Virus genome (UHGV): UHGV-0097046
From: a virus
DNA length: 32,754 nucleotides
Reading direction: 5' to 3' (one strand)
Below are positions 1,790 to 18,315 of the stretch, piece by piece. Position numbers and translations under genes: made by a program. Position 1 is the stretch's first letter; each line of letters opens with the position of its first letter. The notes below the pieces were generated by a model. That model ran no database searches. It was not told where the DNA came from and was given only the letters and a program-made list of their open reading frames with translations.

Positions 1790-1823
1790 CTGTATGTTTA
1801 GCCAGTGCTGTATGAATTAACAG
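1790..1823. promoter_or_regulatory. Two adjacent LexA-like SOS boxes (CTGTATGTTTAGCCAG and CTGTATGAATTAACAG)
   Basis: Both fit CTG-N10-CAG with CTGTAT left half; the second matches about 14 of 20 positions of the E. coli consensus TACTGTATATATATACAGTA; adjacent arrangement as in colicin-type double SOS operators. Confidence 0.45.
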
Positions 1824-1960
1824 TGAATCAGGGGATTTTCAGAAGTGAACAATCATTTTCATGCATGTATTTATACACGAAAAAATCTTGCGTATCATCA
1901 ATATGTGGATTGTTTCGAAAATTTCAACCCCTACCAACGAGAAAAAGTATAAAATAATCC

Positions 1961-1974
1961 TTGACAGTTGTCAA
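1961..1974. promoter_or_regulatory. Inverted repeat TTGACA-gt-TGTCAA, operator-like palindrome containing a -35-like hexamer
   Basis: Perfect 6-bp arms with 2-bp spacer read from sequence. Confidence 0.35.
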
Positions 1975-2000
1975 TACACTTGATCTAAGCGAGAAATGAC

Positions 2001-2167
2001 TATCAAAATTTTTGTGTGAAAATGGCGGATAACGATTATCAACCTTTATAACCTATTATAGCACGGCGACCTTTTGATGATTCTTTTTAAATCATGCATT
2101 TACAGCGGTTTTTGGTGATTTTCTGGTTAAATAATATACAAGAATTTTCTATCAAAATTTTTGATGA
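2001..2167. repeat. Two copies (~150 bp apart) of an ~18-bp element cTATCAAAATTTTTGnnGAAAA containing the palindrome TCAAAA-T-TTTTGA
   Basis: Copies at about 2001-2020 and 2150-2170; second copy is a perfect 13-bp palindrome; candidate dimeric regulator binding sites. Confidence 0.4.
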
Positions 2168-2170
2168 AAA

Positions 2171-2272
2171 ACCTACACTACAAACCTACGCTTTAAAGGG
2201 ATTGGCCTACACTACACTAGCCAGTAAACCTACACTATAACACCTACACACCTACACTAACCCTACACTTCA
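2171..2272. repeat. Array of about seven direct CCTACAC(T) heptamer/nonamer repeats (iteron-like)
   Basis: Occurrences near 2172, 2185 (variant), 2206, 2229, 2243, 2251, 2264 with irregular 8-23 bp spacing in a non-coding stretch. Confidence 0.5.
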
Positions 2273-2615
2273 ATCTCATAAGTGTATGATCTTGAAAGAC
2301 ATTTCACCACACAGACCATAGAATATAAAATTCGAACTAACGTTCTCCTTTTTGCTCGTTTTCTCTCACTACGTTCAAGAAAGATCTCGCAAAAAGAATA
2401 CGGCGTAGCCGTGCGCGAAGCGCCCATCAACACCTTCTAAGACCTGCAAGCAGGATTCGAAAGGGATTGGATAGTTCGCTTCGCTCACGTTCACACCTAC
2501 GGCGTTCACTCGCTTTTGAAAGGATTTTCTCAGAAAGGGATTTAATACTAGTTACTAACTGATTCTAGTAAACGAACGAAGTGAGTAACAATCACTTTCT
2601 AGAAAGGTATTGGTT

Positions 2616-2645
2616 ATCCCTTCGGGATTGCAACCTTCGGTTGCC
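2616..2645 (+). other. Two adjacent stable hairpins with UUCG tetraloops (atccc-TTCG-gggat; gcaacc-TTCG-gttgc) in the leader upstream of the rightward early genes
   Basis: Stems and tetraloops read from sequence; candidate RNA processing or stabilising structure or part of a small RNA. Confidence 0.35.
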
Positions 2646-2844
2646 AAATTGCTTCCTGATTATTATTTCTCCAAAAGAAAGATTCTTATATTCTAAAGAT
2701 ACTTCTTCGTTTTGATGATGATTTATTCAAAATCTATGAAGGAGGGCTTTGCCCGACTGAATACAATCACCTTTCATAATAACAAGAATTTTCTCTTTAT
2801 AAATAATATTAGATTGATTCACTTTCTTTTAGAGAATTTCCACT

Positions 2845-3312
2845 ATGAACCACAAGATGACTACCACTACTCCTTTTATCCTTCTGGGTCTGGATTCTGA
2901 TAGCTTCCACAATGACAAGTTAATGAAGATGTTCCGTGAACGTGGTTATAACATCCTTTTCAACTCTGATGAATCCCATTTCTCTAGTGCATGGTATGCG
3001 TTTTACCGTAATAAGAAGCCGACCATTGTTGTTAACGTCTTCACCGATGAAGAACGCTTAAAGTACCAGGATCTACCAGCAATTATTGTTCGTGATGATC
3101 TTCCGTTTGAAGTCCGTTCCGGTGACATTGACCTGGGTAGCTTCGTTACTGTCTATGAACTGGATGAAGCAATGTTTAACTACGGCAAAGAAACCGCTCA
3201 GGAAGCCCCAGAAGAAGATGAACAAGACGAAGATGACGACGACTACGCACCAATCTGTTTTTCTTCTCAGAATGGCTTCTACGGTTACGACGAAGGCTTA
3301 GATATGCTGTAA
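2845..3312 (+). CDS. Hypothetical early protein (155 aa) with acidic C-terminal tract (EEDEQDEDDDD)
   Basis: ORF from track; no strong RBS, start uncertain (alternative ATG at 2857); function not recognisable. Confidence 0.4.
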   Translation: MNHKMTTTTPFILLGLDSDSFHNDKLMKMFRERGYNILFNSDESHFSSAWYAFYRNKKPTIVVNVFTDEERLKYQDLPAIIVRDDLPFEVRSGDIDLGSFVTVYELDEAMFNYGKETAQEAPEEDEQDEDDDDYAPICFSSQNGFYGYDEGLDML

Positions 3313-3348
3313 GTTAGGTCAACCCCTTGGCGTCTTGTCAAGGGGGCA

Positions 3349-3377
3349 TTGACAAAAATTTCTGACTTTTTTATGAT
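3349..3377 (+). promoter_or_regulatory. Sigma70-type promoter: -35 TTGACA, 17-bp spacer, -10 TATGAT
   Basis: Consensus -35 and 5/6 -10 at canonical spacing, located upstream of the small ORF at 3436 and the Rha-family gene; preceded by a 7-bp-stem hairpin at 3323-3345. Confidence 0.55.
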
Positions 3378-3435
3378 TATCGCACTTGACAACTTTGATC
3401 CTATTTGACCTAGATTTGTAAAGAGGATGTTAATT

Positions 3436-3582
3436 ATGAACACTACTAAGAAAATTGATGGACGTAAAACCCCGAACCGCAAACCGTGGACCCCAAACCT
3501 GAATTTCTCAATGGTTGACTTCCATGAACGCCAGCGTCGCATTCAAGAAGAAATTGATCGCGCGATTGCTGAATCTAAATGA
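3436..3582 (+). CDS. Small basic protein (48 aa), not in ORF track (below length cutoff)
   Basis: ATG 8 nt downstream of AAGAGGA RBS; translation MNTTKKIDGRKTPNRKPWTPNLNFSMVDFHERQRRIQEEIDRAIAESK; preferred over the overlapping minus-strand ORF 3285..3542. Confidence 0.4.
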   Translation: MNTTKKIDGRKTPNRKPWTPNLNFSMVDFHERQRRIQEEIDRAIAESK

Positions 3583-3673
3583 GATAAAAACTTCTTATAA
3601 ATAAAATTGTTCCGGTGATGCTGCCGGAACTAGGAGGACCAAATCACTAAACCGTTTAAGGGGAATTTTTACT

Positions 3674-4489
3674 ATGAATACTGTTACTACTATGAATACT
3701 GCTATTAAACCTGCTTCCGTGTCTCTGGTTGTTGATAACACCAAACCGCTGACCATGTCTTCTCGTCAGATCGCTGAATTTACCGGAAAAGAGCATAAAA
3801 ACGTTAAACGTGATATTAAATCCATGCTCGATGCTCTGGAATTAGATGTGCTCAGTTTTGAGCGCACCTATCTTGATCAGTGTGGACGTGAACAAACCGA
3901 ATATCACCTTGACGAAGAAATGACGCTGACTCTTGTCACTGGTTACGATGTTAAGCGTCGAATGATCGTTATTCAGGAATGGAAACGACTGAAAGAAGAA
4001 AATGAAAAACTGCGTCAGGAACGTTTAGCCGTTAACCCGTATGCAGACTTTGAAGAAACCGACTGGATCGAACTGGCGTTAAAGAAAACTCGTGAAAATA
4101 AAAAGCTGATTGAACTTCATGTTCGTAAGTCTGTAGACAGCCATTCAATGACACGTCTGTTAGGCGCTAAAAAGGGCGCTACGAAGGTTAAAGAAGCACT
4201 GACGGCCTTACGTACTGCTGGATACATTGAGCGCGTCTATGATGAAAATAACAAGCCGTGTGGGTATGTTGCTAATGACTCTTCTCTGTCTTTCTGCCGC
4301 ATGAATGCTCACTACCAGCTTGAGTTTACTGTTGATGTGCTTCCGGTGCTGGTTGAATTGGGTGTTCTGGAAGAAGAACAAAAAGCAACTCTGAATCTTC
4401 CTAAGCCGAACAACACTATTCTGATTCAAAATAAAGCGGCTGAACGTCTCCGCCAGAATGTTGGATCACTGGAAGTCTTCGGACTGTAA
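3674..4489 (+). CDS. Rha-family phage regulatory protein (antirepressor-like N-terminal domain) with unknown C-terminal domain
   Basis: N-terminal motif LTMSSRQIAEFTGKEHKNVKRDIKSMLDALE matches the Rha domain signature (...IAE.TGK.H.NV.RDI...); AAGGGGA RBS; ends with TAATAA. Confidence 0.7.
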   Translation: MNTVTTMNTAIKPASVSLVVDNTKPLTMSSRQIAEFTGKEHKNVKRDIKSMLDALELDVLSFERTYLDQCGREQTEYHLDEEMTLTLVTGYDVKRRMIVIQEWKRLKEENEKLRQERLAVNPYADFEETDWIELALKKTRENKKLIELHVRKSVDSHSMTRLLGAKKGATKVKEALTALRTAGYIERVYDENNKPCGYVANDSSLSFCRMNAHYQLEFTVDVLPVLVELGVLEEEQKATLNLPKPNNTILIQNKAAERLRQNVGSLEVFGL

Positions 4490-4497
4490 TAATTTTT

Positions 4498-4522
4498 AGC
4501 CTCGCCTCGTGCGGGGCTTTTT
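4498..4522 (+). terminator. Intrinsic terminator (agcctcgc-ctcgt-gcggggct + TTTTT)
   Basis: 8-bp stem with one G-U, 5-nt loop, T-run; same hairpin design as terminators at 11823 and 17766. Confidence 0.65.
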
Positions 4523-4637
4523 CATACCTACATCACGCGACTTTTCGCGCCATCTTCCACCAACTCGCCGATGGCGTTTTGGACAACCCTATAGATACAA
4601 AAAAGCCACTCCGAAGAGTGGCAAAGAGAATCAAAAC

Positions 4638-4871
4638 TCAAAAACCTGTTGCTTCTACGATCTGACCATCACCGATCTGAACATAGAATTTAATGTCTAA
4701 CTTCTTCATATTCTTATAGAATTGGGCAATTGAAATCCCATGTTCACTAAGAATCTGTTCTTTCGCTTCCTTACCACGATCCGCTGTATAATAAGCGTAG
4801 GCAATATCAGCCATTTGTTCAGCGTTAAAACGGGCAGGACGACCGCGAGTAGCTTTAGTAGTCATAGTCAT
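4638..4871 (-). CDS. Small Hin/resolvase-type HTH DNA-binding protein (75-77 aa) with N-terminal GRP basic arm
   Basis: TKATRGRPARF...GISIAQFYKNMKKLDIK; paralog of 1420..1602; GGAGA RBS suits the second ATG (start about 4865). Confidence 0.55.
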   Translation of the reverse strand: MTMTTKATRGRPARFNAEQMADIAYAYYTADRGKEAKEQILSEHGISIAQFYKNMKKLDIKFYVQIGDGQIVEATGF

Positions 4872-4903
4872 TTCTCCAAATTAAAGTGAATGTTCACTTT
4901 TAT

Positions 4904-5497
4904 TTAGAGTGACTTACATTTTATCGGAAAAAGTTCTCCATCGTCAACCGACATAAAGAACTCTGCCTTAATCCCGTACTTCTTCAACCGTGAATAGTAT
5001 GTACCCCGACTTATATCAACCTTGCGAAGCACTTCAAAGAAGGATTTAGGATCGTTGTAATAGTGGCTGTACTTCACGTTAGCGAGTTCAACGAATAGTT
5101 CCCTTGTATCACCATAGCCTTTCTTGAAAGCCTCGTTACGATAGCGTGTAATAGCGTGATTCAATCTCTTCTGTTTCAACACTTCTCGGATCGACTTCCA
5201 CTGCAACCGATAGATAGGACCGTCATCAATGCGATAATAACGCTTGATATCAAAATCAAACCAATCTCGGACTCTCCGAAACTCTGTATGTGATGTTCTA
5301 TGCTTCTTAAAGAAGTTGTGAATATCGGTATACCCATGATCGCGATACAACTCGATTAAAATCTCTTTCGCTTCTTCGCGACTAAAACCGGATGTAGTGT
5401 AATCGGTCTTTAAGTGCTTATGTTTTACTGGCAAACGATATTCATGATCGGTACAAGACAAGGCTAATTCATCTCTTTCTTGCTGATTAATTAGCAT
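4904..5497 (-). CDS. Hypothetical protein (197 aa) with C-terminal Hin-type HTH-like segment
   Basis: Strong AAGGAGGG RBS; C-terminal ISRGTYYSRLKKYGIK resembles the HTH of the two small paralogs; divergent from terminase gene. Confidence 0.6.
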   Translation of the reverse strand: MLINQQERDELALSCTDHEYRLPVKHKHLKTDYTTSGFSREEAKEILIELYRDHGYTDIHNFFKKHRTSHTEFRRVRDWFDFDIKRYYRIDDGPIYRLQWKSIREVLKQKRLNHAITRYRNEAFKKGYGDTRELFVELANVKYSHYYNDPKSFFEVLRKVDISRGTYYSRLKKYGIKAEFFMSVDDGELFPIKCKSL

Positions 5498-5583
5498 ACA
5501 CCCTCCTTAAATCTTAATACCGTATTTATCAAAATATCAACAATTTAATAAATACCTTCATATTTCGTAATGAGGGTAATTAC

Positions 5584-7488
5584 ATGAAACTGATTTCTAA
5601 TAAGGCAAAATTAAAAAAGATTCTCAAAAATATCTCTGCTGCAATTCGTCCACCTAAAACCATGAAACCTAGCGAATGGGTAGAGGCTAATGTAGTTGCG
5701 ACCGATGGTGTTAAAGCCGGATCGCTAATTAAATTGCATCCCTTCCAACGTGGAATGATGGACGCGATCACCGAAGACCGTAGAAAAATTGTGTTTAAAT
5801 GTTCGGCACAGTTGGGTAAGACCATGATTCTTAACGGAATTATCTTCCATCGGATCGCGAGTAACCCTACTAATATCGGGGTGTTGCAATCGAATGTCCG
5901 CGAGTTGAATAGCTGGATCGCTGGTAAGGTGAAGCCAGTATTAGAGGCAACACCAGAATTAAAGGCGATGATCACCGACAAATCAGATCGCAATGCCGTT
6001 AACAACTCATCGATTATTCAGCTTCGTAACGGATCGTTTATGTATTTCATGTCGTTGAATAGTCCGTCACATCTTCGCGGTAAAACACTCCCTTTGATTA
6101 TTCTTGATGAAGTTGATGCGGCTGATGAGTCAGACGAAGGGAACCCGATCCAGCTAGCGGAACAACGCGCAACCACTTTCGGGGAAGATGCAAGGATCGT
6201 AATTGCTTCCACTCCAACCGCTCGTGATGGGGCGATTAACCAACAATGGGAACTCTCGGATAAGAGAAAATATCATGTCGTTTGCCAGCATTGCGGACAC
6301 AAGCACGTAATGGAATGGAGTAGAGTTTTCTTTGATTGGCATACGATTAACTGTAAATCACTGCCGAATCCAGATACTGCCGTTTATCGTTGCCCGTCAT
6401 GTGAAACTGATTGGACAGAAGGGGATCGCCTACGTGCTGTTGCTCAAGGTGAATGGATTGCTACAGAACCAAATGCGGAAGTAATCGGTTTTCATGCTAA
6501 CCGCCTTATGTCTCCGTTTAGTTCTATCCGTGCGTGTGTGGTGGACTTTGCTGATAGCTACGCGAATATGTCACTAGCAACGTTCTACAATACAGTCCTC
6601 GGTGAAACCTTCGATGATCTTAACGAAGATCGCACAGCCGACGAACTGGAAACGCTGAAAACTGATATTAGCCTAGACAATATTCCTGATGATGTACTGG
6701 CTCTGGTAGGTGGAGTTGACCAGCAAAAAGACCGTCTGGAATCTACCTTGCTGGGTATCTCTCGTAAGGGGATATGCGTAGTTGATCACCGATCATTCTA
6801 TGATGTGAACTGCGAACGCCACGAATCACCAGCATATGACCAGCTTTATAACTTCCTGAAAGCGAAATTCTATACCCGATCCGGTGAACGAATCCCGATG
6901 CTATCTGCTTTCGTGGACTCATCGAACGGACGAGCTACAAACGTGATCTACCGTTTTTGCACTAGGTGGCAAAACCTATGCGCCATTAAAGGCGCAAGTA
7001 ATGCTGATGCTCCAATCCTTCCGGCTAAGGACACAAGAACGGGCGGTTTTACTCTCAAAATTCTGGGCGTAAACAACCTTAAGACGATGATCCGTGAAAT
7101 GATTAACCGGAACTTGAGAGATGGCGATCCTCATACTGTCTTCCAGATTGGTGACGTTCCTGATGACTATTGCGAGCAATTGCTTTCTGAACAGTTGAAA
7201 CGGCAGGGTAATACCACACGTTGGGTAAAAGTTGGTCAGCAACGAAACGAGGCTCTCGACTGCCTGGCTTATTCCTATGCTGCTTCTCGCCATGTACTCA
7301 ATAAAATGTCATGGGAAAAACTCGAAGCCATCAAAGATAGTTTGAACCGTGAACCAGAAGAACCCGTAAAAGCTCCTGAAACGCAATCTGACGAGCAAAT
7401 CGAAGAAACTAAGCCAATCACACGACCACAACGTCAAAACATCGCCAGACGCCCAAATAGAGGCCGTAGCTGGGTAACATCGTTCTAA
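5584..7488 (+). CDS. Terminase large subunit, lambda gpA-like
   Basis: P-loop-like CSAQLGKT, Walker B LIILDEVD, and recognisable similarity to lambda gpA segments (EW..AN, PFQRG.M.A, HCGH zinc-ribbon-like, TVLGETF, RNEALDCLAYSYAA); first gene of rightward late operon. Confidence 0.88.
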   Translation: MKLISNKAKLKKILKNISAAIRPPKTMKPSEWVEANVVATDGVKAGSLIKLHPFQRGMMDAITEDRRKIVFKCSAQLGKTMILNGIIFHRIASNPTNIGVLQSNVRELNSWIAGKVKPVLEATPELKAMITDKSDRNAVNNSSIIQLRNGSFMYFMSLNSPSHLRGKTLPLIILDEVDAADESDEGNPIQLAEQRATTFGEDARIVIASTPTARDGAINQQWELSDKRKYHVVCQHCGHKHVMEWSRVFFDWHTINCKSLPNPDTAVYRCPSCETDWTEGDRLRAVAQGEWIATEPNAEVIGFHANRLMSPFSSIRACVVDFADSYANMSLATFYNTVLGETFDDLNEDRTADELETLKTDISLDNIPDDVLALVGGVDQQKDRLESTLLGISRKGICVVDHRSFYDVNCERHESPAYDQLYNFLKAKFYTRSGERIPMLSAFVDSSNGRATNVIYRFCTRWQNLCAIKGASNADAPILPAKDTRTGGFTLKILGVNNLKTMIREMINRNLRDGDPHTVFQIGDVPDDYCEQLLSEQLKRQGNTTRWVKVGQQRNEALDCLAYSYAASRHVLNKMSWEKLEAIKDSLNREPEEPVKAPETQSDEQIEETKPITRPQRQNIARRPNRGRSWVTSF

Positions 7489-7560
7489 TAACTCGCCGTC
7501 CTTCGGGGCGGCTTACTCCTAAATATTGTTAATCCAATAACAATTAAATAAGGGGTAATT

Positions 7561-8058
7561 ATGAGTTTAGAACTAATTCCCTTAGTAATTCGTAAAGGTG
7601 AAAAAATCACGCTGGCGAATGAAGAGGGTGTAACAATTCAGGTAGGAAATAGTAAAGGTATCATTTATCAGGTTGATGATACTCCGGCTAATCACGAGAT
7701 TAAAACCTTAGATTTTGCCGAGGGTAAATATACCATCGTAACCACTTTGGAAGAAGAACTGGTATCAATGCAGGAATTAACTGTATTGCCAGTATTCGCC
7801 AAACAATCCAAAAAAGAATATCTGCGCGAAACGATTGCTTTAATCGAAAATACCATCTATGCGCGCCTAGCCAATGATGAAAGTGCGTTATCTGCAATGA
7901 CGATAAAGGGTAATTCGTTTACCTACGAGTCAATTGCGGTTTTACAACAACTGAAAAGGGATTACGAAAAACAACTCGTAAAACTCATTCAGCAAGAACG
8001 GCGCAAGGCTGGCAATTACTCACCAATTACACCGATTAAAGTACGCTTAACTCGATAA
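7561..8058 (+). CDS. Hypothetical head-region protein (165 aa)
   Basis: ORF with TAAGGGGTAATT RBS context between terminase and portal; no family recognised. Confidence 0.55.
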   Translation: MSLELIPLVIRKGEKITLANEEGVTIQVGNSKGIIYQVDDTPANHEIKTLDFAEGKYTIVTTLEEELVSMQELTVLPVFAKQSKKEYLRETIALIENTIYARLANDESALSAMTIKGNSFTYESIAVLQQLKRDYEKQLVKLIQQERRKAGNYSPITPIKVRLTR

Positions 8059-8067
8059 GGATTTAAC

Positions 8068-9591
8068 ATGTTTAATTTTTTCAAACGCAAAAAAGATATG
8101 CCCGTGAATCCGGTTAAGAAAATCGGTATTCGCCAACACCGCAAATTATTTGTAGATCGCAAGATTGAAGAATTTACCAAAGACTTACATAAACGCTCTT
8201 TGGGATTGGTTGAAAGCGACCGCATTGAAGGAAGTATGGCGCGTAATGTCATCACTGGCAGCATTAACAGCGCGATTAAGGGGTCCGCATCACGTCTATA
8301 CAATCAAGGCCGTTATCTTGCGTTAAACACTTCTATTGGCTCCCGTTATTGCCAACACGTTATTGATTCCGTGGTAGGTACTGGCTTACAGCCTCGAACC
8401 TTCGTTATGAAAGGGGAAAAGCTGGACGCAACCACTAACACCGCTATTGAGAATGCTTTTTGGCGTTGGGCTAGCTCTCAGAAACGATTCTCGCGCATCG
8501 GAAAGATTAACTTCCTTGAATGCTTAAAGTTGATGGAAAAAGAGCGCGTGATGGGTGGTGATGCGTTTCTGGTACTCCATGAAGATGGTAAGGATCTGCA
8601 AGTATCCATTTATGGTGCGGATTGTGTTGATTGGTCAGATCAGCGCACCTTAGATAACGGTAATGTCGTTTACGCTGGCATCGAATATGAAGATGAAAAG
8701 CCCGTTGCATATTGGTTTAGGCGTCGTGACCTGTTTACTCAGTCCTTTACTGGCGAACGTGTACGAATCCCGGCGGAAAGAGTGCTGCATTACTTTATCC
8801 CTGGTACAGCCGACGCATTACGTGGTATTACTGATTTCTTGCCAATAATCAAAGATATAGCTCATCTTGAAGCGTTCCGCGAGACTGTAATAATCGGTAA
8901 GCGCGTGCACGCAAGCAGCATGGCCTTTATCACAAGCGATAAAGAAAATCAAGATTCATTTGATGTTGGTGAAGATGACACGGAAAACTATCAACCGCCA
9001 ACAATGATCACTGACTTCGAACCGGGTACTATCAATATACTGGAACCGGGGCAAGACGTTAAAACGGTACAATCAACTCAAGGCGGCGATGATTTCGAAA
9101 AATTCAATGAAGCAATGCTGACTTCTATTTCTATGGGTCTGTCTAGCTTTAAACAAGCTCTTACAGGAGATACAAGTTCTATTAACTACTCATCAGCAAA
9201 ATTCGGTCATAATATTGAATCCGCTCGCTTCAAGACGCATCAAGATCGCTTAGTTGATACTGTTATTCTTCCATTATTTGAGGCGTTTTTACGTCACGCG
9301 GTAATTAACTCAAAAATCAATGTTCGCATGACGCAGATCGATTCTATTTTGGATGCAACGACAATTATTAGACCTCGCGTTACGTCTATTGAACCGATCA
9401 AAGATATTCAGAGTGAAGTTCTGTTAATAGAAAGCGGATTGAAGTCTAAAGCTCAGGTCATTATGGAAATGGGTCAAGATCCGTCTCAGGTCTTTAAAGA
9501 AATTGAGGCAGAAAAACACATGCTAAATACATGCGTCGTGAGTGAGGGTGAGACTGAAAAAGAAAAATCTCCTGATACTCAAAATGAATAA
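8068..9591 (+). CDS. Portal protein, lambda gpB-like
   Basis: Position after terminase, size 507 aa, and similarity to lambda gpB central/C-terminal segments (F..F.EAML.SISMGLSSFKQAL...INYSSAKF). Confidence 0.8.
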   Translation: MFNFFKRKKDMPVNPVKKIGIRQHRKLFVDRKIEEFTKDLHKRSLGLVESDRIEGSMARNVITGSINSAIKGSASRLYNQGRYLALNTSIGSRYCQHVIDSVVGTGLQPRTFVMKGEKLDATTNTAIENAFWRWASSQKRFSRIGKINFLECLKLMEKERVMGGDAFLVLHEDGKDLQVSIYGADCVDWSDQRTLDNGNVVYAGIEYEDEKPVAYWFRRRDLFTQSFTGERVRIPAERVLHYFIPGTADALRGITDFLPIIKDIAHLEAFRETVIIGKRVHASSMAFITSDKENQDSFDVGEDDTENYQPPTMITDFEPGTINILEPGQDVKTVQSTQGGDDFEKFNEAMLTSISMGLSSFKQALTGDTSSINYSSAKFGHNIESARFKTHQDRLVDTVILPLFEAFLRHAVINSKINVRMTQIDSILDATTIIRPRVTSIEPIKDIQSEVLLIESGLKSKAQVIMEMGQDPSQVFKEIEAEKHMLNTCVVSEGETEKEKSPDTQNE

Positions 9592-9633
9592 CCCAACGGG
9601 GCGCAATGCCCCCAATAATTTTCAAGGTGATCT

Positions 9634-11688
9634 ATGACAACAAAACAATTCCGTCGTAGTGTTGCGGTAGATACCCCTGATTTTATCGAAGAAAAAGACG
9701 AACGAATTATTGAATTGGCTTTCTCAAGCGAGGCTCCTTATACACGTTATTACATGAATCAGGACGGCGAGCAAGTCGAATTAAAAGAGATTCTCGTACA
9801 CGATGAATCAGCGGTTGATCTATCCGTTTTAAACGAGACTAACGCAAGTCTTCTGTTTAATCACAATCTGGATCTTCATATCGGCAAGATTGTTCCTGGC
9901 TCCGCTCGTATTGACGAAGACCGTGTAGGTCGTTGCCTTGTCCAATTCTCCAAAGTAGGCCAACTGGCTAATGAATGCTTTGAGAAGGTAAAAGAGGGAA
10001 CACTTTCACAAGTTAGCGTCGGTTATAACGTTCTTGATGGCAAAGCCGATTTTAACAAAGGGATCTATTATGTTACACGCTGGCAACCTTTCGAATGCAG
10101 TCTTGTAACGTGTGCCGCAGATCCATTTAATGCGGGTGTTGGACGCTCTCTAAATACAGACAACGAAATGATTGTTTTGGAGGGTGAACAAGTGGAAGAC
10201 GAAATTAAAGATACTCCGGTCGAAGAAATTAAACCGGAAGATGAAGAAAAACGTTCCGAAGAAGAGAAAGAGGAACAAGAAAATGAAGAAATTGATTCCG
10301 ATTCTGGAAATAGTGCTGACAGTGGCGAAGATGTGGAAGAACCGCAAGAAGTAACGCCAGAAGAAAAAGAAGAACGTTCCGAAGATGAACCGGAAGAAAC
10401 AGAAGAACTAAATAAAGATACAGACGAGAACGACGAAACGGAAAATACATCCGAACCAGTCGAAGAAGAAAAGATTGAAGACGAAGAAAAACCGTTTGAA
10501 CGTTCTCGCGAAGATACCGCCGAAATTCGTGCTATCGGAAAACATCTAAATATCTCCGAAGACGTGATTGAAGCTGCAATTAAAGATAGTGCCGTGACTA
10601 TTGAAAATTTTAAAGAAAAAGCACGCGCACTAAATACTACCGAATCTAAAACTTTTGTTAAAGGAAAAATTACCATGACCGATACCATTAAAACTCTGGA
10701 ATCCCGTTTCGATCTTAATAAAGCTGTACGTGCAATCGCAGAGGGTAAAGCCCTGACTGGCGCAGAAGCTGAATATTCTCAGGAAGAAGCACGTAAAGCC
10801 GCAGCGCGTGGTCGTGCGCAGCGTTCTAACTCCGTATTCATTCCGGCGTCCGCTCTGCGTGCTAGCCAGAACATGGAATCTCTGAAACCAGTAGTTGGTG
10901 AAGAAATCCGCCATGATTGCTTCGTTGATATGATCATGGAACGTTCTATTCTGGGTAAATTGGGTGTGCGTACCATTAACGCAACTGGTCCTGTTTCTCT
11001 GCCGTCTCTGACTTCCAGCAATCTGGAAAACTTCGGTTTTGTTGCAGAAGGTCAATCCGCTGGTGAAGGTACTATTAAGTTTGCAGCGCAGCCGATGACT
11101 CTCAAGACTTTTAACGGAATTGTTCCTGTAACGCGTCAGGCTGCAATCACACTGCCCAATATTGGCGCTATCGTTGGTGAGCACATGCTGAAACACAGTG
11201 CTATCGCTCTGGAAAAAGCGATTCTGTCCAATGCTGCTAACACTAACGCTCGTGATGGTCTGACTAAGATCCTGACCGACGCTGGCAAAGTTAAACAGAT
11301 TGATTGGACCTATGCCGAGTTCCTGAAACTGGTAGCTGAACTGACCGACAAAGGTTATAACGAAGCGGATCTGGCATTTGCTACCCGTGGTGTTGTTAAA
11401 GCTGAACTGGCAGCGCAACTCAAAGCAGCTAATGTTCCGGGCTTCCTGGTAGAAGGCGATAAACTGGTTAACCGTCCGATCTATGGCTCTGGTGTAGTTG
11501 CTCAGGATACCATGCTGTTTGGTGACTTTAGCTCCCTTGTTGTTGCAGACTTCGGATCGCTGGAACTGGATTGCGACGATACCACAGGTCGCGCGGCTGG
11601 CAACCTGTACTTCCGTGTATGGGCTGATCTGGATTGGGCTGTTATGGACCATAGCGCACTGACCGTAGTTCAGAAAAAAGTTGACTGA
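9634..11688 (+). CDS. Fused prohead protease (HK97 S78-type) - acidic linker/scaffold-like region - HK97-fold major capsid protein (684 aa)
   Basis: N-terminal protease motifs (LLFNHNLDLHIGK; SQVSVGY; ECSLVTCAADP); residues ~185-300 extremely E/D-rich; C-terminal 380 aa with HK97-like capsid character (...GFLVEGDKLVNRPIYG...LYFRVWADLDWAVMD). Confidence 0.75.
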   Translation: MTTKQFRRSVAVDTPDFIEEKDERIIELAFSSEAPYTRYYMNQDGEQVELKEILVHDESAVDLSVLNETNASLLFNHNLDLHIGKIVPGSARIDEDRVGRCLVQFSKVGQLANECFEKVKEGTLSQVSVGYNVLDGKADFNKGIYYVTRWQPFECSLVTCAADPFNAGVGRSLNTDNEMIVLEGEQVEDEIKDTPVEEIKPEDEEKRSEEEKEEQENEEIDSDSGNSADSGEDVEEPQEVTPEEKEERSEDEPEETEELNKDTDENDETENTSEPVEEEKIEDEEKPFERSREDTAEIRAIGKHLNISEDVIEAAIKDSAVTIENFKEKARALNTTESKTFVKGKITMTDTIKTLESRFDLNKAVRAIAEGKALTGAEAEYSQEEARKAAARGRAQRSNSVFIPASALRASQNMESLKPVVGEEIRHDCFVDMIMERSILGKLGVRTINATGPVSLPSLTSSNLENFGFVAEGQSAGEGTIKFAAQPMTLKTFNGIVPVTRQAAITLPNIGAIVGEHMLKHSAIALEKAILSNAANTNARDGLTKILTDAGKVKQIDWTYAEFLKLVAELTDKGYNEADLAFATRGVVKAELAAQLKAANVPGFLVEGDKLVNRPIYGSGVVAQDTMLFGDFSSLVVADFGSLELDCDDTTGRAAGNLYFRVWADLDWAVMDHSALTVVQKKVD

Positions 11689-11822: not shown

Positions 11823-11848
11823 AGCCCTGCCTAGTGCGGGGCTTTTTT
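11823..11848 (+). terminator. Intrinsic terminator (agccctgc-ctagt-gcggggct + TTTTTT)
   Basis: 8-bp stem, T6 run, directly after the readthrough extension stop. Confidence 0.65.
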
Positions 11849-11879
11849 GTATGTAAATACTCCATAAAGGGGGTAACTA

Positions 11880-13498: not shown

Positions 13499-16400
13499 AT
13501 GCAATCAATCCAATTTAAACGCACACAAACGGCTGGTAAAAAACCAACGCCGGAACAATTATCACAGGGTGAATTGGCTATTAACCTTGCTGATCACGTT
13601 CTGTATACCAAAGATAAAAATAACGCAGTAGTTCAAATCTCTGTTTCTCCAGAAAAACACGCTGAACTTAACACGAAAGTAGACCAGAATAAAACTAGCA
13701 CTGACCGTGTTATTGCTTCCAACAAACAAGAGGCCGCTAATAATCTGGCTAGTGTTAAAGCTGAACTGAATCAGACTATTACCGCTAAAGACACCGCAAC
13801 CAATAAGCGCATTGATGCTACCAACACCACTGTTAGTAACTTAACCCAGACAGTTACGGCAAATAAAACCGATGCCGACACTAAGATCAATAACCTTACG
13901 GGGACCGTATCTGCGAATAAGACCGCAATTGAAAGAACCGTTGCCGCAAACAAATCTGATGCAGATAGCAAACATGCAGCTTTAACGAAAACGGTCACTG
14001 ACAATAACACCGCGATTAACAACAAGGTTAATACCACTAACACCAACGTTAGCAACTTAACTAAAACTGTTACTGCAAATAAAACCGATGCAGATAACAA
14101 AATTTCTAGCTTAACTAGCACGGTTGCAGCTAACAAAACAGCGATTGAAAAGGTCGTTTCCGACAACAAGAAAGATGCTGATACTAAAATCAGTAACCTT
14201 ACTGGCACTGTGAATAGTAACCATACCGCTATTAACAACAAGGTAGACCAGAACAAATCATCGACCGATGCCGCAATTACAGCCGCCAACAAGCGAATTG
14301 ATGGTATTGAAGGTAGTGCTAACGCAGCATATATCAAGAAGAACACAAAGACCTATCACGGCGCGTATTTGTATAGCAAGACTGGTAACTATCTGGAAGA
14401 TTCAACCGCGAGAGATCTTAATTACTTCGGTGCATTCCGTACCAATGGTCAAGATGGACTCATGGATCTAACCCTTAACGTTCCTCACTCTTCCGGTAAA
14501 GCGCATGGTCGAGGATTTACTTTCCGTTATGCGTCTGGCGGATCTCGTGTTGAAACCTATGGTTTTGATGCTCAGGGACAAAAAGCGTTTAGCTATAAAA
14601 TGTATCACGAAGGGGATAAACCGACTCCTGCTGAAATTGGCGCATATACCAAAGGCGAAATTGATAAGATGTTTATTAAAAATGTCACAATGTCTGTTCC
14701 TTCTGGTAGTGAATCCCGTGCTTATTTCAAGATTGCTACGGCTACGATCCCACAAAATGGTCGTATGGTAATGCTTCGTATCTTCGGTGGTAATGGTTAT
14801 AACGTTAACTCCTATGATCAGGTTGATTTCCTTGAAATTGTTATCCGTTCCGGTAACAATAACCCGAAAGGCGTTAGTATTGCTGCTTATCGTCGAAACT
14901 CTTTGAACGTTCATCAAGTATTTGCGGTTAATACTTCCGGTGATAACTACGACATTTACGTTAACTACGGTCGTTATACTGATAACGTTATTGTCGAATA
15001 TGGTAAGACTAGCGGTGTTTCACTGACTGTTCATGACACCCCAGCTATGACTAACGTTAAGCCGTCTACTGGTGTTACAGATGGACGTGTTATTACAATG
15101 TTCAACACCGAAAACAAGGCCGGAACGTTGATGTTTGATAATAACGGACAGGGTACATATGATATTGTCAGTTTGAATAACGATTCAGGTACTGGTAAAA
15201 AATATCTTCGTAAATTCCGTAGTAAAGCCGCAGAAACAATCTGGCATGAAACTGTTCAAGGTAACGTTTATCGTTTAGCGACTGGTACTACCGATTCTAG
15301 CGAAGTTCTACGAATCACTGGTCGCACCATGTTTACTGGTAAAGGTGTATTTGATGCCGGACAAAACGTTCTTAGATTAGAGCGTCCTAGTAATCAATCA
15401 AACTATATTGAATGGCAAGACCGCCGCAATGGTGCTAATGCTCGTCAAGGTTGGATTGGTTTTGGTAGTGCTGAAACAAATAACTTCCAATGGTATAGCG
15501 ATCAGGGGAAAAACTCATTTCAGCTAGAAGCTAACGGTCAATGCTCTATTACCACTGGTGCAACTAAAATTGTATATACAAACGGCGAGTATGTAGCTGC
15601 TAACTCAAATGCATTCCGTATGATTTACGGCAATTATGGTGCATTTTGGCGCAATGACTCCGCAAAAGTTTATCTTCTGTCAACGGCTGAAAACGATAAG
15701 TTTGGTGGTTGGAATACTTATCGACCATTCATTTATGATCTGACTTCCGGTAACGTTCAATTAGGCGGTGATGGTAACGAAGATGCATTAACGTTAGAAC
15801 GTGCAAGCCGTGCCGCTCGTTTTAGTAATGACGTTTACATTAAGAAAGGTTTTTTGACTTTCGACGCTGGGCGTTCTGGATCGCGTGATTATATTCGATT
15901 TAATCATTGGGGCGATAGCAACAACGCCCGTGATAACGTTTTATACCTCGAAGACAGCAAAGGTCGCCATTTCAGCACCGAACGTAATATGGCTACAGGT
16001 GGACTAAAGGCATATTTCTTAGGTGATCTTGAAGTTGCTGGTCAAATGAGATGGGGTAAGAATACCGGACAATCTAGCTTCAATATTCGTGCATGGGGTA
16101 ATGATACTCGTAAACAAGTATTAGAATGCGCAGATGAAAGCGGCTGGCATTTCTACACACAGCGTGCTGGCGGTCCTGGTACTACCGCAATCGAGTTTAG
16201 CGTAAACGGTAAAATTAACGCTCCCCAACTGTCTATTAGTCAGGATGCAACCATTCCTAAGTTTAATAGCGGTTTTGGTGTTGGTGTTGCTAACGGATTG
16301 GGTGGAAATTCTATTGTTTTAGGCGATAGTGATACTGGATTTAAACAAAACGGTGATGGTGTCCTTGATACCTACGCTAATAACGTTAATGTTGTTCGTC

Positions 16401-17107
16401 ACACATCTGGCGGCATTACCTTTAACCGTCGTGTTGTTGTTGCTAACAAAAATGGTTTAGGTTATTCCGATATCTCTGATGTAACTCGTGACCGTGCTCC
16501 ATTCTTGGTTAACATGGATAGTATTAAGGGGTCTGGTGCATATTTCCCTATTATCGCTGGCTATAGTAACTTAGGTGATGTTGGTTATCGTCAGTCCTTC
16601 GAGTTTGGTTGGACGGGTAGCGGTTCGACTCACGGTTGGCGTACTGGTATTATCCGTATGCGTGGCGATAACGCCAACGGGCAGCAAGCACGCTGGGAAT
16701 TTACTATGGATGGTGACTTTACCGCAGGTCGTAACGGTAGCTTTAACGATGTTTACATTCGCTCTGACTCCCGTTTGAAGATTAACAAGGAAGAATTACA
16801 GGACGGCGCATTAGAGAAAGTAAACTCCCTGAAAGTCTACACCTACGATAAAGTTAAATCTCTTTCAGATGACACAGTGATTAAACGCGAAGTAGGTATT
16901 ATTGCTCAGGATCTGGAAGAAGTGTTGCCGGAAGCAGTAGGTATTCAATCCACCGAAGATCCAGAACAACCGGAAGCAATTAAGACTATTTCTAACTCTG
17001 CTGTTAATGCCTTGATTATTAAAGCTATTCAGGAAATGGACGCCAAATATCAAGCTAAGATTGAAGCATTGACTAAAGAGATTGCCGAACTCAAAGCAAC
17101 TAAATAA
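13499..17107 (+). CDS. Tail fiber protein (1202 aa) with N-terminal anchor motif, ~21-aa tandem repeats and C-terminal intramolecular chaperone (peptidase S74-like) domain
   Basis: N-terminus KKPTPEQLSQGELAINLADHVLYTKD (fiber-anchor-like); repeats T-V-x-ANKTDAD-x-KI-x-xLT-x-TV-x-ANKTAIE; C-terminal SDSRLK...GIIAQDLEEVLPEAV...coiled coil typical of auto-cleaving chaperone domains of endosialidase and T5 L-shaped fibers. Confidence 0.85.
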   Translation: MQSIQFKRTQTAGKKPTPEQLSQGELAINLADHVLYTKDKNNAVVQISVSPEKHAELNTKVDQNKTSTDRVIASNKQEAANNLASVKAELNQTITAKDTATNKRIDATNTTVSNLTQTVTANKTDADTKINNLTGTVSANKTAIERTVAANKSDADSKHAALTKTVTDNNTAINNKVNTTNTNVSNLTKTVTANKTDADNKISSLTSTVAANKTAIEKVVSDNKKDADTKISNLTGTVNSNHTAINNKVDQNKSSTDAAITAANKRIDGIEGSANAAYIKKNTKTYHGAYLYSKTGNYLEDSTARDLNYFGAFRTNGQDGLMDLTLNVPHSSGKAHGRGFTFRYASGGSRVETYGFDAQGQKAFSYKMYHEGDKPTPAEIGAYTKGEIDKMFIKNVTMSVPSGSESRAYFKIATATIPQNGRMVMLRIFGGNGYNVNSYDQVDFLEIVIRSGNNNPKGVSIAAYRRNSLNVHQVFAVNTSGDNYDIYVNYGRYTDNVIVEYGKTSGVSLTVHDTPAMTNVKPSTGVTDGRVITMFNTENKAGTLMFDNNGQGTYDIVSLNNDSGTGKKYLRKFRSKAAETIWHETVQGNVYRLATGTTDSSEVLRITGRTMFTGKGVFDAGQNVLRLERPSNQSNYIEWQDRRNGANARQGWIGFGSAETNNFQWYSDQGKNSFQLEANGQCSITTGATKIVYTNGEYVAANSNAFRMIYGNYGAFWRNDSAKVYLLSTAENDKFGGWNTYRPFIYDLTSGNVQLGGDGNEDALTLERASRAARFSNDVYIKKGFLTFDAGRSGSRDYIRFNHWGDSNNARDNVLYLEDSKGRHFSTERNMATGGLKAYFLGDLEVAGQMRWGKNTGQSSFNIRAWGNDTRKQVLECADESGWHFYTQRAGGPGTTAIEFSVNGKINAPQLSISQDATIPKFNSGFGVGVANGLGGNSIVLGDSDTGFKQNGDGVLDTYANNVNVVRHTSGGITFNRRVVVANKNGLGYSDISDVTRDRAPFLVNMDSIKGSGAYFPIIAGYSNLGDVGYRQSFEFGWTGSGSTHGWRTGIIRMRGDNANGQQARWEFTMDGDFTAGRNGSFNDVYIRSDSRLKINKEELQDGALEKVNSLKVYTYDKVKSLSDDTVIKREVGIIAQDLEEVLPEAVGIQSTEDPEQPEAIKTISNSAVNALIIKAIQEMDAKYQAKIEALTKEIAELKATK
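13790..14260 (+). repeat. Tandem in-frame coding repeats (~63 nt units) within the tail fiber gene
   Basis: Repeated ACCGATGC(C/A)GA(C/T)A...AA(A/T)ATC...CTTAC blocks encoding the TANKTDADxKIxNLT units. Confidence 0.6.
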
Positions 17108-17163: not shown

Positions 17164-17634
17164 ATGTCTCAATTTAATGATATTTTTACTGGTGGTCTGG
17201 TAAGTCTGTTCTATCACGCTGATACCACTAACACCGCTCTCGATCACTCCGGTTACGAAGAAATTAAAGAGTGTGCTGGTTTTCCTGAAACTGGTATCGA
17301 GCGCGGTACTGTAGAAGTTAAATCCTTCTCTTCTCAGTATAACCGTAAGCTGGTAGGGAAACTGAACGTTCCTGATCTGACTCTGACCGTTAACTACATC
17401 CCAGGCGATGCGGTGCACGAGAAGCTCATTAAAGCTGCCGAAGACGGTACTCGAATTCAGATTAAGATTGAATACTATGTTGATGCAGCAAAACAGACTG
17501 GTATTCGCACCGCTTTCAACGGCTTTATTTCTAAAGTTGCTATGAACGGTGGCGATGAAGAAGTTGTAACCAAAGAGTTTACCTTCGCGGTGGACGGAAA
17601 GCCGATCAAACAGGAAATCTTCACTGCCGGATGA
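17164..17634 (+). CDS. Major tail tube protein, lambda gpV N-domain-like (156 aa)
   Basis: Similarity to the lambda gpV tube domain (EDGTRIQIKIEY / FNGFISKVA / EVVTKEFTFAVDGKP versus gpV EGDTRAYKIRF / FRGWVSSIG / EVITRTVKVTNVGRP); AAGGGGTAATTCT RBS; position before G/T chaperones. Confidence 0.75.
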   Translation: MSQFNDIFTGGLVSLFYHADTTNTALDHSGYEEIKECAGFPETGIERGTVEVKSFSSQYNRKLVGKLNVPDLTLTVNYIPGDAVHEKLIKAAEDGTRIQIKIEYYVDAAKQTGIRTAFNGFISKVAMNGGDEEVVTKEFTFAVDGKPIKQEIFTAG

Positions 17635-17808: not shown

Positions 17809-18315
17809 ATGGCAAATGTCGTTAATAAGCCCGGCTGGGTCGGATCATCTGCTGTATCGGTGACGGGTAAGCGATGGATGAAAGAAGCATTAACAGCTTT
17901 AAAAGTTCCGGCTCCGCGTAATATGTCGGCAATGGCTGGTCGTGGTATGGATACGGTTGTAGCTACTGCATCGTGGTCTACTTCATTGGGTAATAACTGG
18001 GGTGTAACTGCTTCAAACTATCCTGTTTCCGGTATGCAAAGCAAAGGATCTATGGAGAACCCCGAAAACGTGGGCGTAGGCCGTCTAATTGGCGTTATCG
18101 TTGGTCAATTCAATGGCGGTACTCCTACTATGGCTGTATATCTCCAGAACGGTAGAGCGGGGAATATAACCGTTAATTTGGGTGGTGCTGCTGTCACTGT
18201 TCCTTATAACAGTATGCAAAGTGGTTTTCATTACTACTGGTTAAGCAATCCTCCGGCAGCTTTCCTCAATAACATTAAGAAGACTGGCACTAAGCAGACT
18301 TTGAAAATCTCTTAA
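17809..18315 (+). CDS. Hypothetical tail-region protein (168 aa), Gly/Ser/Thr-rich, possibly beta-sandwich
   Basis: ORF between major tail gene and chaperone genes; no family recognised. Confidence 0.5.
   Translation: MANVVNKPGWVGSSAVSVTGKRWMKEALTALKVPAPRNMSAMAGRGMDTVVATASWSTSLGNNWGVTASNYPVSGMQSKGSMENPENVGVGRLIGVIVGQFNGGTPTMAVYLQNGRAGNITVNLGGAAVTVPYNSMQSGFHYYWLSNPPAAFLNNIKKTGTKQTLKIS

Follow-up and report, generated by a model that had tools for sequence, protein, structure and literature searches.

A single open reading frame (ORF) of 684 aa in the virus genome UHGV-0097046 (the window, 32,754 nt, one strand) was found to encode the precursor of the head shell in a lambda-like E. coli prophage. 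A protease, a spacer, a delta-like region, and a capsid domain are almost certainly joined in its one frame. The sequence further suggests a new element in this gene, a conserved internal start signal for a shorter, protease-free capsid precursor. The best overall explanation, which we regard as likely, is a fused precursor with an inward-facing pro-region, a protease acting mainly in trans, and probable nesting of two products. Coordinates of the features are given in Table 1.

Table 1. Features in and around the fusion gene (positions in the window; SD, Shine–Dalgarno sequence).
Positions	Strand	Feature	Details
9598..9612	+	Small GC hairpin (GGGGCgcaatGCCCC) followed by CAATAATTTT	Between portal stop and fusion start; fold z −1.9
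9624..9630	+	SD AAGGTGA of annotated start ATG 9634	Duplex of −4.1 kcal/mol with the 16S 3' end
9634..11688	+	Complete ORF, 684 aa (75.5 kDa)	Precursor: protease, spacer, delta-like domain, HK97-fold capsid
9634..10158	+	Prohead protease domain, aa 1–175	S78/assemblin fold
10159..10503	+	Acidic disordered spacer, aa 176–290	47% D/E; pLDDT <35; length and composition vary among relatives
10179..10194	+	Candidate internal start, codon 187	SD GGAGGGTGA (10179–10187), 4 nt, in-frame GTG (10192–10194)
10504..10881	+	Conserved helical pro-region, aa 291–416	HK97 delta-like; helices 292–333 and 352–391 (AF2)
10661..10677	+	Candidate internal start, codon 348	AAGGA (10661–10665), 9 nt, ATG (10675–10677)
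10855..10893	+	Predicted maturation-cleavage zone, aa 408–420	Disordered in model; indel hotspot; aligns with first residue of the R4C virion chain
10882..11685	+	Predicted mature HK97-fold major capsid protein, aa ~417–684 (268 aa, 28.7 kDa)	PF05065, 8gta alignment, Foldseek
11823..11850	+	Intrinsic-terminator-like hairpin (8 bp, 6 GC) with T-run	Directly 3' of capsid gene; z −2.0

The ORF runs uninterrupted from ATG 9634 to the stop codon at 11686–11688, and its product is present in RefSeq as WP_024245434.1 under the name 'phage major capsid protein'. With the portal stop at 9591 and the fusion start at 9634, there is no space for a separate protease or scaffold gene between portal and capsid, and the absence of such a gene reported in the initial annotation was thus confirmed. 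The hairpin in this gap resembles a weak terminator or attenuator. The hairpin downstream of the capsid gene occupies the same position as an annotated terminator in phage Mano.

We estimated the probability that the fusion is an artefact or a product of decay, i.e., either a sequencing or assembly frameshift that ran two genes together or the decayed gene of a dead prophage, to be negligible. Although the prophage is rare (the same ORF was found in seven of 5,426 complete E. coli genomes), one copy (H41) is interrupted by IS2, and related phages with separate protease and capsid genes exist (Faecalibacterium phage FP_Epona), independent complete genomes carry the ORF intact, with an identical or near-identical sequence. 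Intact homologues with both domains were present in hundreds of Salmonella and E. coli prophages (53–98% identity), with conserved catalytic and fold-defining residues in both domains and conserved synteny around the fusion gene. The same fusion is carried by the cultured phages R4C, ep3, VP882, and phiHAP-1. A frameshift, which had been named as a possible source of the fusion, was ruled out by the continuity of the ORF in the seven E. coli genomes and hundreds of relatives.

The protease domain was characterized by profile and by fold. Pfam PF04586 Peptidase_S78 matched aa 59–162 with 39.6 bits in the whole protein and 43.2 bits in the domain alone (cut-off 21). The equivalog model NCBIfam TIGR01543 proheadase_HK97 scored 35.8 bits, below its cut-off of 59, and by these profiles the domain is related to HK97 gp4 and is not its equivalog. 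Four residues, His77 (9862–9864), Ser128 (10015–10017), E154, and D163, were invariant in 34 fused sequences of 24–39% identity. His77 and Ser128, ~50 residues apart, are the presumed catalytic pair, by analogy with the catalytic H65 and S114 of HK97 gp4. A Foldseek search with the full-length model returned capsid matches only and none for the protease, so the protease domain had to be modelled separately; the protease-only model had an assemblin/T4 gp21-like fold at low confidence (pLDDT 52.6). Sequence searches of the PDB found no solved protease relative and matched the capsid only. The motifs quoted in the initial annotation (LLFNHNLDLHIGK, VSVGY, and FECSLVTCAADP) were all located in the ORF. 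Profile and fold both agreed with its identification of the N-terminal domain as a prohead protease.

The AF2 model of the full protein consisted of four segments. The C-terminal segment matched Pfam Phage_capsid PF05065 at aa 427–680 (53 bits, cut-off 24.2), and thus the proposed fusion of protease and capsid domains in one 684-aa frame was upheld by two Pfam matches above their cut-offs. Foldseek matched the capsid to 8gta_A (E 9e-11) and, with a probability of 1.00, to HK97 1ohg, 2gp1, and 3qpr, D3, P2/P4, and 80alpha. The R4C gene encodes 629 aa, and its virion chain (PDB 8gta_A) comprises exactly residues 362–629, which aligned to residues 417–684 of our protein. As the R4C virion chain represents the last 268 aa, the mature protein is expected to start near aa 417, and processing to a capsid protein of ~268 aa is, by this analogy, probable. 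The R4C structure paper nowhere mentions a protease or cleavage, and residue 362 may therefore be the first modelled residue and not the true N-terminus. According to the same paper, R4C is without HK97-type chain-mail crosslinking. Of the capsid part originally claimed, the HK97 fold stood, but its length of ~380 aa did not, the predicted virion portion being ~268 aa (417–684). Our literature searches gave no experimental work on either processing or internal initiation for a protease–capsid fusion.

Similarity to a scaffold was found upstream of the capsid domain. TIGR01554 aligned aa 313–680 to positions 5–384 of its 385 (44.2 bits, cut-off 27.5), and the family profile aligned to HK97 gp5 residues 6–330, including 'Scaffolding domain delta'. 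According to these alignments, the scaffold (delta-domain) similarity lies at aa ~291–416, downstream of the acidic run. A motif in the pro-region of our protein also occurs in R4C, VP882, ep3, and the split capsid gene of Epona.

The acidic run itself (residues 176–300, 47% D/E, net charge −46) contained essentially no tandem repeats. The D/E content of the spacer compares to a family median of 20%, and its acidity is specific to its own clade. Because near-identical alleles are missing 36–68 aa of it (deletions of aa 215–250, 201–252, or 209–276), comparison of the alleles points to a dispensable spacer. The initial annotation had proposed profile searches of three segments, the middle one described as an acidic scaffold-like linker. 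The S78 and Phage_capsid profiles matched as proposed, and the middle region is indeed E/D-rich, but it is predicted to be disordered, its acidity is clade-specific, near-identical alleles lack part of it, and scaffold similarity fell outside it.

The fused design is already known and common among phages. The best 120 homologues were all 616–694 aa long, with both Pfam domains precomputed in 119 of them. PHROG 617 was matched end to end (aa 12–681 to profile positions 15–623 of 626, E 1.5e-68). NCBIfam NF045541, 'prohead protease/major capsid protein fusion protein', scored 131.3 bits against a cut-off of 525 and over aa 21–382 only, which suggests the same architecture in a different sequence family. 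The family comprised 1,680 clusters (50% identity, E ≤ 1e-10), with the fusion seen in almost every one of the best 150. The arrangement, previously described as uncommon, thus belongs to a large family that is already catalogued (PHROG 617/4523, NCBIfam NF045541, a standard SEA-PHAGES term). Searched with the gene at the nucleotide level, the phage collection gave no match, and single-protein and alignment scans of genome contigs (one genome per species) gave no relative. Fused relatives include Dinoroseobacter phage R4C gp6, Vibrio phage VP882 gp07, Halomonas phage phiHAP-1 ORF5, and Escherichia phage ep3 gp31. As in our gene, the order within them is S78 protease, variable linker, conserved helical pro-region, and HK97-fold capsid, and the fusion follows a gpA-type TerL, a W-like protein, and a lambda-family portal. 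Identity to any cultured phage is only 26–37%, and our gene differs from its fused relatives in the unusual length and acidity of the spacer and in a boundary start that is GTG rather than ATG.

The candidate internal start lies just past the protease domain. Its SD duplex was estimated at −9.8 kcal/mol, compared to −4.1 kcal/mol for ATG-1, and the RNA around it was weakly structured. Against its use, codon 187 is GTG, not ATG. Initiation at this codon would yield a product of 54.6 kDa (aa 187–684) without the protease. An SD followed by ATG was detected 14 to 18 aa past the protease in L006, DCP80, VP882, phiHAP-1, and R4C, and 26 to 36 aa past it in ep3, Mano, Alexa, Persinger, phiRSP, and FoX1. 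No boundary start was seen in L008, and the boundary ATG of S-LBS1 has no SD. The pattern GAGG-N5-9-GTG was kept in three enterobacterial sub-lineages although the linker sequence differs between them.

We also assessed the boundary start statistically. Met occurred at +8 to +24 in 79 of 129 diverse fused proteins, compared to 38.9 expected (control windows 33–52, P 3e-13), the windows of this test having been chosen after the pattern was seen. K and E were enriched upstream of the boundary Met in the family proteins. The SD was stronger in the real codons than in synonymous recodings (Fisher P 1e-4 overall; P 0.087 for our gene alone). Since synonymous conservation was raised across aa 180–360 in the enterobacterial clade, conservation of the SD within this clade carries little weight. 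The split capsid gene of FP_Epona starts, with an AGGAGG SD, at the same protease/spacer boundary. Repeated rounds of fission and fusion between the genes could have left behind part of the Met enrichment. On the strength of these signals, we lean towards a functional internal start at codon 187.

The second candidate start, at codon 348, would yield a product of 36.1 kDa (aa 348–684). We consider it unlikely that this is the main protease-less product (36 kDa, the size of HK97 gp5, with a delta-like arm of ~70 aa) and that GTG-187 is minor or unused. Met348 was invariant in 120 of 120 aligned enterobacterial homologues within a conserved K-G-K/N context encoding AAAGGAAA, its SD duplex is the second best in the gene (−5.6 kcal/mol), and it is located where a disordered loop gives way to helices 352–391. 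A Met with an SD is found in a similar position in L006, DCP80, and L008. However, R4C and VP882 have no aligned Met at 348, and no clear family-wide Met peak was seen at this register, where the anchor pattern matched 50 proteins only; as a family-wide start it was therefore rejected, and it is retained as a clade-specific candidate. The GGA codon before Met348 is invariant, yet not above the locally raised synonymous conservation, and the synonymous-site test was rejected as evidence for this SD because the whole of aa 180–360 is raised. A product starting at Met348 would furthermore lose the conserved helices 292–333, which are retained in the pro-region of the split Epona capsid gene.

An alternative that needs no internal start is that only the 684-aa protein is made, each of ~415 subunits having its own protease freed in cis. 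In its favour, the ORF has no break, a usable SD precedes the annotated start, the fusion is described as one protein in the literature, two fused homologues (L008 and S-LBS1) show no recognisable boundary start, and with a disordered tether of ~115 aa the protease could come within reach of its own cleavage zone. We nevertheless consider this alternative rather improbable. Initiation would be expected at an intact SD and GTG in weakly structured RNA whose duplex is much stronger than the one at ATG-1; the family-wide enrichment of the boundary Met with purine-rich upstream codons and the excess of SD strength over synonymous alternatives also argue against a single product. In addition, 415 copies of the 46.8-kDa internal part would take up roughly half of a T=7 procapsid, if not more. 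Assuming T=7 and a cavity radius like that of HK97 proheads, 415 full-length pro-regions (19.4 MDa) were estimated to fill 46–70% of the procapsid cavity, compared to 26–39% without the protease. Known relatives of the protease, HK97 gp4 and T4 gp21, act in trans inside proheads. The initial annotation held that the fusion implies cis-acting autoproteolysis; nothing in our results shows cis action, and the internal start suggests that many subunits are without a protease. Since it suggests nested products, it argues against a purely cis maturation with one protease per subunit.

For the fused precursor with nested products, the following course can be proposed. Precursors would assemble on the portal into a procapsid, with the parts N-terminal to the capsid domain facing inward and the delta-like helices (aa ~291–416) acting as a built-in scaffold. 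The tethered protease (His77/Ser128) would turn active in the crowded interior and cut the pro-region, its own tether, and neighbouring subunits, i.e., it would act mainly in trans. A capsid protein of ~268 aa (28.7 kDa, start near aa 417) would remain, and the fragments would exit before DNA packaging. The GTG-187 product, composed of spacer, delta-like region, and capsid domain, would be made beside the 75.5-kDa full-length protein, and the protease would thereby be supplied at a sub-stoichiometric dose, as in lambda C/Nu3, HSV-1 UL26/UL26.5, and HFTV1 gp17/17.5. Our judgement is evenly divided on whether the protease–capsid fusion family as a whole consists of nested genes, in which a conserved internal ribosome-binding site at the end of the protease would give a bulk of protease-free scaffold–capsid precursor, with a minority of full-length, protease-tethered protein co-assembling as ordinary shell subunits.

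Compared to HK97 gp4/gp5, our gene has the same Pfam S78 protease, capsid fold, and delta-like pro-region (removed in HK97), and the gp5 chain 3qpr_A aligned across both pro-region and capsid. The HK97 protease is encoded by a separate gene and recruited non-covalently through its own C-terminus, whereas here it is covalently tethered by the disordered spacer. FP_Epona gp38 (protease, 176 aa) and gp39 (capsid, 530 aa) are split relatives. The Epona protease is homologous to ours (39% identity over aa 20–173), and gp39, which begins right past the protease, shows in its pro-region the helical motif ER-x-R-x-x-EI...G-x-S/T that our protein also has. Since the two Epona genes are kept apart by a stop codon and 13 nt, only the short product type is made there. 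Nested protease/scaffold genes have a precedent (bioRxiv 10.64898/2026.09.13.751334): lambda C/Nu3, HSV-1 UL26/UL26.5, and Haloferax virus HFTV1 gp17/gp17.5 have an in-frame internal start past the protease. Genes of the lambda C/Nu3 type give two products with a common C-terminus, a long one that includes the protease and a shorter one for assembly, which is presumably the more abundant. In those genes the shared part is scaffold only and the capsid gene is separate, whereas here the shared part would be scaffold and capsid protein. Internal initiation has been demonstrated in the lambda C/Nu3-type systems; in our gene it is inferred from the sequence.

For annotation, our analysis suggests that the protein named 'phage major capsid protein' in RefSeq also supplies the head protease and the scaffold, and that the mature capsid protein (~29 kDa, predicted) is far smaller than the annotated product. 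Gene callers and proteomics pipelines would overlook the shorter product. If the family is indeed nested, the logic of lambda C/Nu3 and UL26/UL26.5 would be extended to a gene that combines three functions, and relative initiation rates, not a separate gene or a binding tag, would set the protease dose. Confirmation of the internal start would explain how phages with the fusion avoid ~415 proteases per procapsid, and would mean that stoichiometry control by nested genes, as in lambda, herpesviruses, and an archaeal virus, also applies in a very large set of phages and prophages that has received little study.

The protease and capsid protein were confirmed to be encoded as one polypeptide, as the initial annotation had claimed. 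The ORF is uninterrupted in a single frame, the motifs quoted for that claim are present in its translation, and both Pfam domains scored above their cut-offs, the Peptidase_S78 match identifying the N-terminal domain as a protease. A gpA-type large terminase, a W-like head-tail joining protein and a lambda-family portal are encoded upstream, the portal gene directly preceding the fusion, and an FII-like protein gene follows. The short hairpin between portal and fusion could act as an attenuator or mRNA-stability element. The strong hairpin immediately 3' of the capsid gene is overlapped by a mechanically called ORF starting at GTG 11834; the RefSeq start of the next gene is equivalent to 11879. 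Further downstream, a fibre gene follows the head-completion genes and precedes the lambda-like tail tube gene, which is itself followed by a gene for a Gp38-type adhesin domain. A side-fibre module in such a place is unusual for a lambda-like layout.

Features of the fusion gene, its product and its surroundings (window coordinates; the fusion ORF is on the plus strand)
Feature	Nucleotides	Residues	Basis or remark
Portal gene, stop	9591		lambda family
Short GC hairpin	9598-9612		weak T-tract
Fusion ORF	9634-11688	1-684	ATG 9634, stop 11686-11688
Beta-rich domain		1-159	AlphaFold2, 10-residue block pLDDT 57-87
Peptidase_S78		59-162	Pfam, 39.6 bits (cut-off 21)
Disordered segment		160-286	AlphaFold2, pLDDT <35
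Acidic spacer	10159-10518	176-295	
Candidate internal start, GTG	10192-10194	187	-9.8 kcal/mol
Two helical units		292-333, 352-391	AlphaFold2; disordered loop 334-350 between
Second candidate start, ATG	10675	348	SD AAGGA, -5.6 kcal/mol
Disordered segment		411-427	AlphaFold2
Phage_capsid		427-680	Pfam, 53 bits (cut-off 24.2)
HK97-like domain		428-684	AlphaFold2; floppy E-loop
Long antisense ORFs	10068-10688, 10630-11652		probably spurious
Terminator-like hairpin	11823-11850		strong, T-run
Fibre gene	13499-17107		1202 aa; T4 Gp34 trimerization and C-terminal S74 intramolecular-chaperone domains
Tail tube gene	17164-17634		lambda-like
Adhesin-domain gene	17809-18315		T4 Gp38 N-terminal domain
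Large serine recombinase	29525-31219 (-)		Resolvase, Recombinase and Zn-ribbon domains

Chromosomal prophage genes with 97-100% identity to the fusion gene occur in seven of 5,426 complete E. coli genomes. In strain 39EVA, where the gene's sole annotation is 'phage major capsid protein' (WP_024245434.1), the prophage lies next to the prp operon and to a cytosine permease gene that is truncated; the abutting truncated copy suggests integration into that gene. The serine recombinase encoded towards the window's right end is likely the integrase, and in the matching region of 39EVA (L001:8652-9026) there is an IS1. In E. coli HCP5S3_I4 (NZ_CM149869.1, 2468152-2471542), an otherwise identical capsid gene is split by IS2, and this prophage copy is therefore head-defective.

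A search of 5.8 billion proteins yielded 477 matches to the fusion protein. The best 120 of these were all 616-694 aa long and came mostly from Salmonella and E. coli (53-98% identity); precomputed annotation listed both Pfam domains in 119, the exception (P0031) listing the protease domain only. Terminase, W-like gene, portal and fusion were in the same order in all six homologues from this set fetched with DNA. Among 1.84 billion 50%-identity representatives, 3,742 matched at E <= 1e-3 and 1,680 at E <= 1e-10. Because nearly all of the best 150 of the 3,742 (mostly 565-700 aa) matched both halves, a sequencing frameshift joining two genes was ruled out: the fused ORF is kept at full length across relatives. 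Two Salmonella-type relatives carry, directly after the capsid gene, an extra gene of ~346 aa with DUF723/CapR-like matches (L011:5186-6226 and L015:5201-6247), a moron-like insertion absent from the window.

With so many clusters at the stricter threshold, the arrangement, at first described as uncommon, proved to be common, and it is already catalogued. The fusion aligns end to end with PHROG 617 (E 1.5e-68), PHROG 4523 bears the name 'major head and protease protein', and NCBIfam holds NF045541 ('prohead protease/major capsid protein fusion protein'), a family to which our protein, judged by its score (131 bits vs a cut-off of 525), does not belong. Capsid, protease and scaffold have been described as 'fused into one' across several actinophage clusters (bioRxiv 10.1101/2020.01.10.891226). 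Cultured Gram-negative phages of varied tail types also carry the fusion (ep3, PT1, VP882, phiHAP-1, Mano, Alexa, Persinger, phiRSP, FoX1, S-LBS1 and R4C). The 684-aa protein is a divergent representative of known protease-capsid fusions. Its closest relative in the phage database (37% identity) belongs to the 141-kb record of Escherichia phage DCP80 (PQ671644.1), which is classified as a T4-like Gaprivervirus yet opens with lambda-type genes (~1700-10900) for terminase, portal and the protease-capsid fusion; the record may be a chimeric assembly. A predicted protein of 4,451 aa (P0233) contains the whole fusion at residues 1620-2258; it may represent either a true polyprotein or an ORF that runs on because of an alternative genetic code. 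The 874-aa homologue of Roseobacter phage CRP-701 (L029:712-3336) has an extra ~300-aa domain before the protease and appears to be a four-part fusion.

The protein was modelled with AlphaFold2 from a 30-sequence alignment (mean pLDDT 63.5). The modelled capsid domain matched solved capsid proteins of R4C, P2/P4, 80alpha/SaPI1, D3 and HK97 (Foldseek probability 1.00). In the protease domain, E52, L54, L74, H77, G84, S128, Y131, E154, S156 and D163 were invariant among 34 fused proteins (24-39% identity). H77 and S128, 51 residues apart, are likely the catalytic pair by analogy with HK97 gp4.

Residues 176-300 are 47% Asp plus Glu (net charge -46). This stretch had been read as a scaffold-like linker; it is instead a spacer, and the scaffold-like part lies 3' of it. 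The linkers of R4C, VP882 and phiHAP-1 are short and Pro/Ala/Thr-rich, the median linker in a diverse fused set is 20% acidic with only ~7% reaching 35%, and near-identical E. coli alleles have in-frame deletions of aa 215-250, 201-252 or 209-276. The acidic run is a length-tolerant disordered tether, not a conserved part. By sequence comparison, the conserved pro-region is aa ~291-416, where an ER-x-R-x-x-EI...G-x-S/T...F helical motif and a [FY]-S-L...R...E-x-E block are common to all distant fused phages. The TIGR01554 model, of which the HK97 delta domain is a part, aligns to aa 313-680, and a family profile aligns to residues 6-330 of full-length HK97 gp5, a chain annotated as 'Scaffolding domain delta'.

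Among enterobacterial relatives, synonymous sites were far more conserved at 10170-10710 (aa 180-360; 0.5-1.0 of conserved-residue codons identical) than in the protease and capsid domains (~0-0.3). Recent recombination of the segment or RNA-level constraints could account for this; the two long antisense ORFs overlap the same stretch. Raw counts of Glu codons (GAA:GAG) were 40:4 in the acidic spacer vs 33:9 elsewhere in the gene, possibly because SD-like GAGG strings are avoided there.

By sequence, the one relative with a solved structure was the capsid protein of Dinoroseobacter phage R4C (PDB 8gta_A), whose gene encodes a 629-aa fusion in the same gene neighbourhood. The virion chain of 268 aa corresponds exactly to R4C residues 362-629 and aligns to aa 417-684 of our protein. 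The structure paper reports 415 copies in a T=7 shell and nowhere mentions protease or cleavage; residue 362 may thus mark where the model begins and not the true N-terminus. Aligned with the chain start, aa 408-420 are disordered in our model and an indel hotspot among relatives, as would be expected of an exposed processing site. On this alignment, the mature capsid protein would be ~268 aa (28.7 kDa).

We scored every in-frame ATG, GTG and TTG for upstream pairing with the 16S 3' end. The best-scoring start was GTG codon 187, preceded by GGAGGGTGA and positioned exactly where the protease domain ends; the annotated ATG scored weaker (-4.1 kcal/mol). Several observations suggest that this placement is not accidental. 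An SD with ATG was found 14 to 18 aa past the protease in the relative L006, DCP80, VP882, phiHAP-1 and R4C (GGAGGA, -9.5 kcal/mol in R4C), and a conserved M-x-[EK]-[KI]-[IV]-LRDA-x-GN at +26 to +36 aa in ep3, Mano, Alexa, Persinger, phiRSP and FoX1. The relative L008 had no boundary start, and cyanophage S-LBS1 had an ATG without SD. Within the enterobacterial clade, three sub-lineages kept GAGG-N5-9-GTG despite differing linkers. Enrichment of boundary starts in eight clade representatives, in a window chosen post hoc, gave Poisson-binomial P values of 1.5e-4 (at -5 kcal/mol) and 1e-2 (at -3.5).

The signal was tested on new data from 129 diverse fused representatives. Met frequency peaked 12 to 17 aa past the protease end (5.3% vs 2.1% overall), and 79 representatives had a Met at +8 to +24 (38.9 expected, 33-52 in control windows; P 3e-13). 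Residues after this Met resembled N-termini, and Lys (3.2x) and Glu (2.6x), with purine-rich codons, were enriched upstream. When seven upstream codons were recoded synonymously by each gene's own codon usage, the SDs became weaker than the real ones, with individual P of 0.01-0.14 in the +14 to +18 group and 0.087 for our gene (Fisher combined P 1.2e-4 for 15 genes, 1.8e-3 for seven clade representatives). RNA around codons 187 and 348 was less stable than shuffles (z +1.4). In the split relative, Faecalibacterium phage FP_Epona, a stop codon stands at the protease/spacer boundary, the capsid gene begins 14 nt later behind AGGAGG, and its pro-region has the same helical motif as the fused proteins.

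Initiation at codon 187 would be expected, since an intact SD and start codon lie in open RNA. The gene thus read probably yields two co-terminal products, the full-length protein (75.5 kDa) and a protease-less one (54.6 kDa). The same nested logic is seen in lambda C/Nu3, HSV-1 UL26/UL26.5 and HFTV1 gp17/17.5, the last by ribosome profiling (bioRxiv 10.64898/2026.09.13.751334); unlike in those systems, the part shared here would extend to the capsid protein. A rough packing estimate, with the cavity radius (20-23 nm) taken from HK97 proheads and the T number assumed from R4C, agrees with a protease-less second product: 415 copies of aa 1-416 (19.4 MDa) would fill 46-70% of the cavity, and as many of aa 187-416 would fill 26-39%. 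Alternatively, repeated gene fission and fusion could maintain a boundary start without need for both products in the fused state. In the split relative, Faecalibacterium phage FP_Epona, a stop codon stands at the protease/spacer boundary, the capsid gene begins 14 nt later behind AGGAGG, and its pro-region has the same helical motif as the fused proteins. The second candidate start, before the second helical unit, was invariant in 120 enterobacterial homologues; Met348 was not conserved in R4C or VP882 among aligned distant fused phages, and codon-level conservation there did not exceed the locally raised background.

The fusion had initially been taken to imply cis-acting autoproteolysis. 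Cis-only cleavage does not follow from the fusion, and the internal-start signature makes it less likely. This signature is the sole part of the analysis likely to draw specialist follow-up.
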